Source: Mycoplasmoides pneumoniae FH | GTDB lineage: Bacteria > Bacillota_I > Bacilli_A > Mycoplasmatales > Mycoplasmoidaceae | Length of the DNA stretch: 32,000 nucleotides | Assembly (NCBI RefSeq): GCF_001272835.1 | Contig: NZ_CP010546.1 | Location: 572,809-604,808 of the forward strand | Direction: 5' to 3' | Shown: positions 23,811-26,847 of the stretch, one piece after another | Layout of the letters: each line of letters starts with the position of its first letter | How positions within the stretch are numbered: position 1 is the stretch's first letter | Made by a program: the position numbers and the translations under genes | The notes under the pieces: generated by a model | The model's input: only the letters and a program-made list of their open reading frames with translations | The model's database searches: none | What the model was told of the DNA's origin: nothing

Positions 23811-25793
23811 TTAGTTATTTAAATCTAATTGTGGGTTAATTTTGAGTAATTGTTGTAATTTAGTTACTTTAGTTTGCTTACCATTGTCAATAATTTGTGC
23901 CAGCAAGATTAAACCAACGGTAGCCAAAATTACTAAGATCCAACCACCAATTACATTGTAAGCCCCAATTCAAACTAACAACCCAAAGTAAAGATTCCAG
24001 TCAGCCATTCCAATAAAACCGTTGTCAACGGGTGATGCACTTTTACTGATCCACTCAATTGCTTGTGCTAGCGTACTGTTAACAGCTTTTAAACTGTTAA
24101 AGCTATCGGATTTAACAAAGCTTTGCGCTTCGGTTATCCGGTTAACACCAGTAGCATTTACAACCTTTTCTACGGCTGTTTTTAATGCCGAACCGTTGTT
24201 ATTGTCCAAACTATTACCCATTAACGCCTTTAAATCAAAGCTTTGTTTAGCATCTAACAGTGCCGAAGCCTGGTAAGCGTTTGATACGGTGCGCAGCGCA
24301 AATGAAATCACAATAATTTCTAAAAAGCCAATAATACCCGGGAGCAGTAAGGCCGCCTTCCAACCACCCTCGGCATTAGCATACACGCCAAAGGCACCAC
24401 TGTTAAAGAAGAGTGTAATAAACAAAGGAATCGCCACAAAGCTAAACTGGTTACCCGGAATATAGCTAATGCCAGCCATAATGGCAACAGCTAAAAACTG
24501 ACCAATGACCCCACTTAAAAACCCAAAGGTCACGGAGTTAATTGAAAACCCATAAACAGCTGCAATATCAACCGCTACCACGGCCCCTGGTACTACCTTT
24601 TCACTAATACCTTGAAACGCCTGTTGTAACTCAGTGATAAACATCCTTACCCCAGTCATAATGGCAATTAAGCTGGCCACCATTTTCAAAGCACCCCCAA
24701 TAATGTTGAGCGTAAAGTTAGCTCCGCCAAAGGTAGTGTTTCAAATCTCTAAACCATTAATGGCACCAAATTTGTCCCAGTTAATTAACAGTGGTTTATC
24801 ACCCTTGTAACTAGCCAAAATCACAATAAACAACACCACAAACAAACTAAGGATAATGATCGTTTGGGTGAAGATATTATCTTCAAAGATCTTTAGGGCC
24901 TTAGGCAGTTTTTTGTGCTCGGCACTATCGTTTTTGTCACCAAAGTACTTGCCCAATTTAGCAACCGTCATAATCCCTAACATCTGCTGGTGACCAATCG
25001 AAAAACCAGCATTATTGGTTACCTTATTGGTCACTAAATAGGTACCCGTAGAGGCCGTAGACCAGTAAACTCCCAAAAAGATACCACTAATAATCACTAG
25101 ACCGGCTTGGGCACCGTAAGCAATGCCCGTACCCAACAACGGAATTTGGCGGAACAAGACAATATAGAACAGCGTAGTAACTACCGCTGCTTGTTGCAAC
25201 ATAACGTGTCCAGTAACCATAATCGAATTGGTGTTAGTTCAACGCTTTAACCCCACAAAGATAATGTTGACAATAAAGCCCACTAACAGCGAAAAGGCAA
25301 TCAAGGACACATAGTCATTGTTCAAGAAACTGTTCGTAAAGAAATCGTTCGCTGATGCTAAGGAAAAGTAAGGATCCAATAGTACCACACCAGTACCCCC
25401 TAAACCCTTAATCGTGTCAAAAACGGGACGGGCGGTGGACACCAACACGCCACTACCAATGCTTAACAGGATAAAGCCAATTACGGTCTTTAGTGCCCCC
25501 ACCACCGATTGCACCCCACCACGACCTAAAGCAAGGTAACCAATTAGGGTAATAACACCTAACAATAGCGCTGGTTGACGCAAAAAGTTATCGAGGTATA
25601 CCCGCGTAATTAAAAAGATAAAGGCATCACCAAAGGCTTGGGCCGAAAACGGGGTTACTCCCTTACTAACTAAGTTCGGTAATCCTGCACGCAGTAATAC
25701 TGTCAAGAGAATTACCACCAGGTTGATCAAAGCAAAAACGGATCAACCGATAATTAACTTACGTTTTTGTTGGAGCTTAATTTTGTTGAGCAT
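23811..25793 (-). CDS. ulaA: PTS EIIC permease (UlaA/SgaT-like), 660 aa
   Basis: Track ORFs 25239-25730, 24741-25220 and 23970-24689 are one frame joined by TGA (25239, 24741, 23970, plus 25743). ATG at 25793-25791, TAA at 23811-23813. The protein is polytopic and hydrophobic throughout except for a roughly 98-aa hydrophilic segment. Confidence 0.85.
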
Positions 25794-26847
25794 TACTCTA
25801 TTTTTAGTTGTTTTTTAAGTGCTAATACCCGTGGATGCACAGCCTTGGGATTAAACTTCCGCGGTGCATCAAAGGCCAGGATTTCAGCGGGATTTTCGAC
25901 CAAGATGGTGTTAATGGCCGCATCGGAAACTCCCACTTCTTTAAGGAGCGGAATAAAGCGTTCAAACAGATATGCAAACCCAAAGCACTCCTTCCCTTTT
26001 TCTAAACCATAGTGTTTTGGTACAGTACCCGCCCCGCATCTAAGGCCAGGGTAATGTGTTTAACAAAGCCCAAGTCCACTAAGTATTTAATGTGTTTAGC
26101 CAATAAACAATCGGGGTAATACTTCACCCGATCGGGCCCATCAAAACACAGGGTCACACCCAGTTCCCGAATAATCTTGGCATAGTAATACTCATCGGGA
26201 TTCTTGTTTAAGTGCGATAGTTAAATTTTCCGCGGATTAACGCCAAAATCAATCAGGTGTTGTACTGCTTCATATGCCATGGTACCGAGTTGGGTGTGCA
26301 CGAGTACGGGAGCACCAGTAGTAATCGAAGTAATCGCGACTGCTTCCAAGGCCTTTAATTCCAACCGGTCAATCGCAGCATAGCCCGTACCAGCTTTAAT
26401 AATGCCTGCCTTAGCCTTGCCCCGTTTAACCACGGGACCGGAATAGTTATACAAATCCATACCCTCTTCTATTTCAGCGACCAACATCGGCACAATTTCA
26501 TTAACTGGCACTTGTGCTAACCAAGAACTTCCCTTGTCATAGAAAGCAGCCTTGTGAAAACCAGTGGCCATAATAATGTTCAGCTTGCCCTTTAGTTGTT
26601 CTGCAATCGCTACCATCCGTTTGACATCACGGCCCACATTCGGTGGATCCATGGTGACAATGCTCCGACCACCATGGTGGACAAATTACAAACACTCTTT
26701 AATAGCAGCTTCATTCGATAACATCACAAAATCAGGGTGCTCTTTGGCTTCCGGACCCCAATTCTTAATTAAATGATCGTGACAGTCACAAATACCTAAA
26801 TCCTTAGGGTCAATGTCCCCTAAAACTGTTCTTACAAATCTTTTCAT
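25793..26847 (-). pseudogene. Decayed phosphotriesterase-like (amidohydrolase superfamily) lactonase gene
   Basis: ATG at 26847 gives MKRFVRTVLGDIDPKDLGICDCHDHLI (HxH metal motif). There is an in-frame TAA at 26686-26688, then ...FVHHGGRSIVTMDPPNVGRD..., then a second in-frame TAA at 26221-26223, then ...ITLALDAGR. A frameshift near 26012-26037 brings in the C-terminal YGLEKGKECFGFAYLFERFIPLLKEVGVSDAAINTILVENP, ending at TAA 25793-25795. Total length is 1055 nt, not a multiple of 3. Confidence 0.75.

Follow-up and report, generated by a model that had tools for sequence, protein, structure and literature searches.

The question raised by this locus is whether Mycoplasmoides (Mycoplasma) pneumoniae still makes the enzyme that should open the lactone ring after uptake by an ascorbate-type phosphotransferase system (PTS) and, if it does not, what has become of the pathway. 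The gene concerned, MPN_497, occupies positions 25793-26847 on the minus strand of the window analyzed here, a 32,000-nt stretch of M. pneumoniae FH (NZ_CP010546.1) to which all positions refer unless another locus is named. An initial annotation of this DNA had described the gene as a phosphotriesterase (PTE)-like lactonase interrupted by two nonsense codons and a frameshift, standing first in an otherwise intact operon. The data presented here make it highly probable that MPN_497 is a unitary pseudogene fixed throughout M. pneumoniae and that the ascorbate-type pathway is crippled. By comparison with intact orthologs, its disabling lesions recur in one independent genome after another, and a full-length product is absent from the published data.

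The minus strand of 25600-27100 was read directly and translated in three frames with genetic code 4. MPN_497 starts with the ATG at 26847-26845 and opens with the peptide MKRFVRTVLGDIDPKDLGICDCHDH, and its frame is broken by TAA codons at 26688-26686 (codon 54) and 26223-26221 (codon 209), exactly as had been claimed. The third stretch of the original frame runs through HITLALDAGRVLYQ and ends at a TAG at 26004-26002; the homologous reading, HYGLEKGKECFGFAYLFERF...KKQLKIE, lies in another frame and extends from 26014 to the TAA at 25795-25793. The frameshift suspected at about 26012-26037 is therefore real, but it does not lie in the G-run at 26025-26037, where the initial annotation had looked for it. 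The local sequence is CAA AA_ CAC and homologs read LYQ[K/R][N/H]YG at this point, which places the loss in codon 278, within the A4 run at 26018-26015. When one A is added there, the sequence becomes LYQKHYGLEKGK, which faces LYQRNYGLTKGK of the solved M. synoviae lactonase (PDB 3msr) in the alignment. Since TAA-54 faces a Glu and TAA-209 a Gln, and since the repaired LYQKHYGLEKGK also finds its partner, each lesion can be attributed to a single-base event.

A rescue by genetic code 4 was considered and rejected, as it had been in the initial annotation: both stops are TAA, and the whole gene contains zero TGA codons. The final TAA at 25795-25793 and the ulaA ATG at 25793-25791 have one A in common, and the overlap described earlier, TAATG, was read directly at 25795-25791. 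Downstream of TAA-209, the first canonical start is a GTG at 26157 (codon 231), and the metal ligand H212 is for this reason part of no canonical open reading frame (ORF). Altogether, codons 55-65 and 210-230, the latter including H212, fall outside every canonical-start ORF.

To what kind of enzyme do these pieces belong? A conceptual repair in which both stops were replaced and one A was restored gives a 351-aa protein. Its sole Pfam match is PF02126 (PTE; E=1.5e-37), which covers residues 12-324 and profile positions 1-297 of 298, and its PDB matches are all members of the PTE or PHP family. The match to the solved M. synoviae lactonase (PDB 3msr/3ovg) spans residues 3-350 with E=1.2e-159, so that the four pieces of MPN_497 follow one another along the whole of a single solved protein; whether the fragments represent a single amidohydrolase fold, a point left for checking by the initial annotation, is thereby answered in the affirmative. 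The HDH and LALD motifs on which the PTE-like assignment had first been based correspond to CHDH at residues 22-25 and LALDAG at residues 267-272 of the conceptual protein. In amidohydrolase barrels, the metal ligands are an HxH motif in strand 1, a lysine in strand 4, a histidine in each of strands 5 and 6, and an aspartate in strand 8. The metal-binding residues H23, H25, K151, H184, H212, and D270 are invariant columns in the alignment of homologs, and all are kept in conceptual MPN_497. Among 5.8 billion protein clusters, we found 188 homologs of the repaired protein, and those that carry a name are called phospho-furanose lactonase (NCBI).

As judged from these comparisons, the parent of MPN_497 is a PTE-fold phospho-furanose lactonase (PF02126, COG1735) that stands first in the ascorbate-type PTS operon of mollicutes and takes the place of the unrelated UlaG, lactonase activity having been assayed on the M. 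synoviae and M. agalactiae orthologs. According to a review, these orthologs, Ms0025 (M. synoviae) and Mag6390 (M. agalactiae), hydrolyze D-xylono- and L-arabino-1,4-lactone-5-phosphate. Two independent genome papers proposed that a PTE-like gene stands in for UlaG, which the ascorbate clusters of mycoplasmas lack, and PTE-ulaABCDEF synteny in about 28 of 39 genomes agrees with them; the statement of the initial annotation on this point is thus supported. Membership of MPN497 in the metallo-beta-lactamase-fold UlaG family was rejected, given that PF02126 was the only Pfam match and the PDB matches were PTE or PHP proteins. MPN497 and Escherichia coli UlaG share the same proposed step, lactone opening after PTS uptake, and M. 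pneumoniae resources label MPN497 "ulaG." However, the folds are unrelated, MPN497 being a PF02126 TIM-barrel amidohydrolase, and the label therefore marks an analogue, not a homologue. In the literature searched, activity of PTE-type enzymes on ascorbate-6-phosphate was not documented.

The repaired protein shares approximately 70 to 74% identity with the M. synoviae and M. agalactiae lactonases over its full 351 residues, the figure for Ms0025 being about 70%, its conceptual translation retains all invariant residues, and the gene holds the same place at the head of a ulaABCDEF-type cluster. In M. pneumoniae, by contrast, two nonsense codons and a frameshift interrupt the gene, a full-length protein is not made, and ulaF is inverted upstream rather than trailing the operon.

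A single record with one lesion in a homopolymer run might be suspected of a sequencing or assembly error. We aligned the window with eight independent assemblies, chosen via contigs that encode the fragment ORFs and representing both allele lineages. Both TAA codons and the frameshift were shared without variation by all nine M. pneumoniae sequences, in answer to the question, raised in the initial annotation, of whether other strains share them. It follows that all three lesions predate the divergence of the two lineages sampled. The 53-aa and 143-aa fragment ORFs match M. pneumoniae proteins exactly. The 53-aa piece is present on 586 contigs; the 143-aa piece is found on 991 contigs as the M129 allele (AAB95994.1, which is MPN497) and on 137 as the window allele; in the index, 1,491 blocks of the collection are given for the former allele and 307 for the latter. 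Taken together, the fragment ORFs are found on >1,000 contigs from NCBI, ENA, and Logan, and this, along with the nine sequences that carry identical lesions, excludes both an error of sequencing and an artifact of laboratory strains. Moreover, two of the three lesions are substitutions and not homopolymer-length errors. We regard an error in the record as refuted.

No intact M. pneumoniae allele of MPN_497 was found among the 5.8 billion protein clusters, since the best genuinely encoded full-length homolog of the repaired protein is only 78% identical to it. The sole 351-aa M. pneumoniae entry is UniProt P75290 ("Uncharacterized protein MPN_497"), a conceptual repair with no contig behind it. 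This entry contains the same repair as ours, with E54, Q209, and YQKHYGL across the frameshift; it differs in representing the M129 allele, which is separated from that of the window by three residue changes (A195V, L320P, and Q331K).

The comparison with other species was based on a scan with one genome per species, which returned 39 loci; M. pneumoniae itself was not among them, although the window encodes both of the peptides scanned for, DGPDRVKY and TGFHKAAFY. Each of the 39 loci has an intact lactonase ORF, with lengths of 320 to 362 aa. In about 28 of the 39, the order is lactonase-ulaA-ulaB-ulaC-ulaD-ulaE-ulaF on a single strand, and an MPN499-like gene often comes next. M. pneumoniae is exceptional twice against this background, in its broken lactonase and in the inversion of ulaF and MPN499 to a position upstream of it. 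Because two TAA codons and a -1 deletion break the barrel frame while the other 39 loci are intact, MPN_497 is a pseudogene derived from the PTE family and not a functional member of it. In an alignment of 50 sequences, conceptual MPN_497 keeps 73 of 73 invariant columns and departs at 2 of the 146 columns that are at least 95% conserved, the mean for intact homologs being 1.56. Given that the invariant residues are all kept and the deviations are near this mean, the inactivation looks evolutionarily recent. As a test for decay elsewhere in the cluster, conserved columns of the other six genes were inspected, and no excess change was found; M. pneumoniae UlaA, UlaB, and UlaC deviate at 0 of 75, 0 of 16, and 2 of 22 such columns, respectively. 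The two M. pneumoniae lineages differ by three fixed changes, all nonsynonymous, in the 1,055 bp of MPN_497 and by four in 4,994 bp of flanking ula genes.

Published expression data indicate how far ribosomes proceed along the transcript. In the ProTInSeq study (PMC10920889), the 53-aa N-terminal ORF (mpneu26389; 116,891 reads) was positive by both ProTInSeq and Ribo-seq and is strongly translated, whereas the 51-aa ORF past TAA-209 (mpneu26391) was called by neither method and the 47-aa GTG ORF past the frameshift (mpneu21242) was not called translated, only a computational predictor being positive for these two. Ribosome and peptide data beyond each TAA, which the initial annotation had named as a check, thus show strong translation before TAA-54 and distal ORFs that remain uncalled. 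RNA of the 143-aa ORF is abundant, with a log2 level of 10.1 to 10.6 compared with 5.2 to 5.7 for ulaA, but the ORF was detected in 0 of 116 mass-spectrometry samples and was not called by ProTInSeq (PMC10920889). In the same data set, ulaB was detected in 111, ulaC in 108, ulaA in 41, and araD (ulaF) in 86 of the 116 samples. The discussion of that study also mentions an unnamed pseudogene with in-frame insertions before but not after its internal stop (PMC10920889). In addition, a proteolysis study lists MPN497 ("UlaG") as a candidate Lon substrate of the "differentially detected" class, absent in the presence of Lon and detected upon Lon depletion in the insoluble fraction (PMC7737663). Behavior as an unstable Lon substrate is explained without further assumptions by MPN497 being a 143-aa shard of a 351-aa enzyme. 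From the translation, mass-spectrometry, and Lon data, we conclude that ribosomes stop at the first TAA and that the full-length MPN_497 enzyme is not made, the cluster being otherwise expressed. It is of note that the published RNA levels drop about 30-fold from MPN497 to ulaA despite their assignment to one operon.

These data also bear on two ways in which a broken gene might still give an active enzyme. Readthrough at both TAA codons combined with a +1 ribosomal frameshift would produce the full-length protein, and the perfect conservation of the conceptual protein at catalytic positions and the abundance of the MPN497 mRNA could be taken to point in this direction. However, three separate events would be required, the lesion sites of the orthologs consist of plain sense codons without a shift, reporter insertions and ribosome signal are high before TAA-54 with the later fragments uncalled, zero peptides were seen in the 116 samples, and the sole observed product is an unstable Lon substrate. 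Such recoding is largely refuted and must be considered extremely improbable. The same holds for the idea that separately translated fragments assemble noncovalently into an active TIM barrel. Although some translation is seen for both the 53-aa and the 143-aa piece, codons 55-65 and the stretch with H212 belong to no canonical-start ORF, the two distal pieces were not called translated, and Lon degrades the 143-aa piece, which is insoluble; a split enzyme is thus largely refuted as well, with hardly any probability left to it.

The course of events can thus be outlined. Ribosomes translate the first 53 codons of the abundant MPN_497 transcript and stop at TAA-54, and slight reinitiation at Met66 yields a misfolded 143-aa fragment that is removed by Lon protease. 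The dead gene would then be merely a transcribed leader of about 1 kb. Mollicutes lack Rho, and the resulting absence of Rho-dependent polarity behind the premature stop would explain why the downstream ulaABCDE genes and the divergent ulaF are still expressed. Within the space searched, namely the window and the loci of about 12 kb, the lactone-opening step after PTS uptake would be left with no dedicated enzyme, and the pathway would be crippled to leaky flux at most, which would fit the weak ascorbate phenotype reported for M. pneumoniae, with growth "to a much lesser extent." Growth on ascorbate is seen in M. agalactiae, whose lactonase is intact. The cluster would be at an early stage of decay, comparable to the split arcA and the unusable mannitol pathways of M. 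pneumoniae. Like MPN497, ArcA is a pathway gene in fragments with intact neighbors, and its fragment is likewise expressed, unstable, and cleared by Lon. A crippled pathway in early decay is in our view the most likely state of this locus, ahead of a bypass of the dead gene as the main rival and a changed substrate as a minor one, although decay, bypass, and changed substrate are inseparable by sequence alone.

Several observations weigh against this interpretation. The other six cluster genes are free of excess conserved-column change and their proteins are expressed, so that signs of decay are so far limited to the lactonase. M. pneumoniae has been reported to show some ascorbate catabolism or growth, with which a complete block is difficult to square unless there is a bypass. 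That the step lacks a dedicated enzyme is drawn from the window and the loci of about 12 kb and may not hold for the rest of the genome. Furthermore, relaxed selection within the species is only suggested by the lineage-fixed differences, which are too few variants for more (Fisher p=0.11). Finally, the 143-aa ORF received a positive Ribo-seq call (RCV 5.0), though its footprints show no frame preference (91, 92, and 88 in the three frames; PMC10920889).

In the main rival, the gene is dead but the step is supplied by a promiscuous esterase or lactonase elsewhere or by spontaneous ring opening, the operon remaining under selection. The intact state of the other cluster genes, their conserved columns, and the detection of their proteins would be expected in this case, as would the reported ascorbate catabolic activity and weak growth. 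However, no candidate enzyme is known, and in the curated resources for M. pneumoniae the step is attributed to MPN497 itself. The phenotype on record is weak, and it was not obtained in a growth test. Moreover, the lactonase is retained in 39 of 39 other genomes with the cluster, which argues that the step is not dispensable. We regard such a bypass as a real possibility, but not as the probable state of affairs.

The substrates of the characterized orthologs open another route. These enzymes act on five-carbon phospho-furanose lactones and not demonstrably on ascorbate-6-phosphate, and the natural substrate of the mycoplasma clusters is to that extent uncertain. The PTS and UlaD, UlaE, and UlaF might therefore handle a compound that needs no lactone hydrolysis, loss of the lactonase being neutral or adaptive, and the rearrangement of ulaF and MPN499 in M. 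pneumoniae would be in keeping with such a change. On the other hand, UlaA, UlaB, and UlaC hardly deviate at their conserved columns, no alternative substrate is known, and a recent inactivation leaves little time for respecialization. A changed substrate thus appears quite improbable. Unlikely as well is the proposal that loss of the lactonase was tolerated or even favored while the transporter and UlaD, UlaE, and UlaF were kept, either through an unrecognized, nonhomologous lactone opening or because the PTS has turned into an accumulator of ascorbate-6-phosphate. In the latter variant, ascorbate-6-phosphate could, for example, protect against the cell's own peroxide, and the dead but highly transcribed gene could be a leader that throttles ulaA, in view of the drop in RNA of about 30-fold between the two.

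A crippled pathway, as favored here, stands at odds with how MPN497 is handled in the field. That MPN_497 is a pseudogene is in itself already known, in that GenBank annotates only fragments and UniProt P75290 is a conceptual repair; the PTE lactonase family and its operon role have also been published, and the loss is an ordinary case of decay for a reduced genome. The consequence of a dead MPN497 for the assignment of the pathway, on the other hand, seems to have gone unnoticed. The main M. pneumoniae resources treat MPN497 as a functional UlaG with no truncation flag, and metabolic models count it as a working enzyme and predict growth on ascorbate. In the literature searched, we found neither a mention of MPN497 in the main text of a paper nor a paper linking the M. 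pneumoniae lactonase to a pseudogene. Unlike the published truncated genes of M. pneumoniae, MPN497 is missing from the hand-curated list of 36 truncated gene variants (PMC7737663), its pseudogene/split-gene flag is 0 in the ProTInSeq tables (PMC10920889), and its pathway is still scored active in metabolic models. In other words, curated lists of 35 to 36 M. pneumoniae pseudogenes and split genes omit a gene that the same studies list as "UlaG," a Lon substrate (PMC7737663 and PMC10920889). The annotation gap carries over into the metabolic models of an organism that has a flagship role in whole-cell and genome-scale modeling. As a consequence, either the ascorbate branch of these models is wrong or an unknown enzyme performs the lactonase step.

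The features of MPN_497 and of the surrounding cluster are collected in Table 1. The statement in the initial annotation that ulaA to ulaE and araD/ulaF are full length was borne out by their translations and Pfam matches.

Table 1. Coordinates of the MPN_497 lesions and fragments and of neighboring features in the 32,000-nt window
Feature	Positions	Strand	Basis or remark
Lesion 1: TAA at codon 54, inferred GAA->TAA	26686..26688	-	Faces Glu of solved homolog, KEFKEF vs KECLxF
Lesion 2: TAA at codon 209, inferred CAA->TAA	26221..26223	-	Faces Gln in homologs, KIQ[IL]SHLNK
Lesion 3: one base gone from codon 278 (Lys, AAA or AAG), A4 run	26015..26018	-	Frame comparison and homolog alignment
Fragment 1: codons 1-53 from ATG, metal-ligand motif CHDH (H23, H25), ORF P0121	26689..26847	-	Translation
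Fragment 2: codons 66-208, 143-aa ORF annotated MPN497, starts at conserved internal Met66, PF02126	26224..26652	-	
Codons 210-281, original frame, metal ligands H212 and D270	26005..26220	-	Translation
C-terminal 73 codons (279-351), readable only in shifted frame	25796..26014	-	Translation and alignment
Original TAA stop of lactonase gene, one-base overlap with ulaA start (TAATG)	25793..25795	-	
ulaA (MPN496), PTS EIIC, 660 aa, intact	23811..25793	-	Pfam EIIC-GAT
ulaB (MPN495), PTS EIIB, 95 aa, intact	23521..23808	-	
ulaC (MPN494), PTS EIIA, 159 aa, intact	23040..23519	-	
ulaD (MPN493), 3-keto-L-gulonate-6-P decarboxylase-like, 218 aa, intact	22382..23038	-	OMPdecase
ulaE (MPN492), L-ribulose-5-P 3-epimerase-like, 292 aa, intact	21529..22407	-	AP_endonuc_2
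ulaF/araD (MPN498), L-ribulose-5-P 4-epimerase-like, 242 aa, intact, divergent here	26963..27691	+	Aldolase_II
MPN499-family protein, 163 aa, 47-nt overlap with ulaF end	27645..28136	+	PF26924
115-bp divergent intergenic region, dead lactonase gene/ulaF	26848..26962	.	

In other mollicutes, ulaF lies behind ulaE on the same strand, whereas it is divergent in M. pneumoniae; among the loci fetched, the inversion of ulaF and MPN499 (26963-28136, plus strand) is specific to the M. pneumoniae lineage, as seen by comparison with loci L010-L037. PF26924 homologs with 18 to 33% identity follow ulaF immediately or at a short distance in many mycoplasmas, for instance at 13943-14323 of locus L016, 14137-14592 of L021, and 14140-14577 of L026, which suggests that the MPN499 family may be an unrecognized seventh member of the cluster. 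With respect to the origin of the cluster, the M. pneumoniae lactonase is 72 to 78% identical to those of hominis-group species; among species that have pneumoniae-group genus names, the value is 69% in M. testudinis and 55% in both M. fastidiosum and M. cavipharyngis. For ulaA, identity reaches up to 63% with the former group but 49% with the latter. These pairwise identities, calculated against loci L009-L039, hint that the M. pneumoniae ula cluster (21529-27691) may have been acquired horizontally.

Presumably, the intergenic region at 26848-26962 holds both divergent promoters. A scan with a two-hexamer sigma-70 consensus and for terminators gave matches at or below the chance rate, and in this region, it returned only plus-strand sigma-70-like sites, at the chance rate. 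No Rfam match to a structured RNA or riboswitch was found at E<=1 in 25000-27600, which includes the dead gene and its leader. A weak terminator-like hairpin is present at 26129-26114 on the minus strand, inside MPN_497. In the draft assembly GCA_001296895.1 (locus L003, positions ~7870-7972, equivalent to ~24807 of the window), ulaA is called as two pieces because of a 2-base insertion that includes an N, which is most likely an assembly ambiguity and not a second broken gene.

Elsewhere in the window, a 1.43-kb direct repeat with 97.4% identity is found at 11114-12541 and 16289-17710, the second copy lying within a 1,366-aa ORF at 14282-18382 on the minus strand; it looks like a dispersed adhesin-related repeat element of M. 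pneumoniae. On the other side of the ula cluster, two plus-strand stretches at 28212-29864 and 31226-31999 have a G+C content of about 0.49 to 0.53, most of the window being at roughly 0.42. The ORFs in these stretches resemble Adhesin_P1_C but lack ATG starts and are probably silent adhesin-repeat copies.

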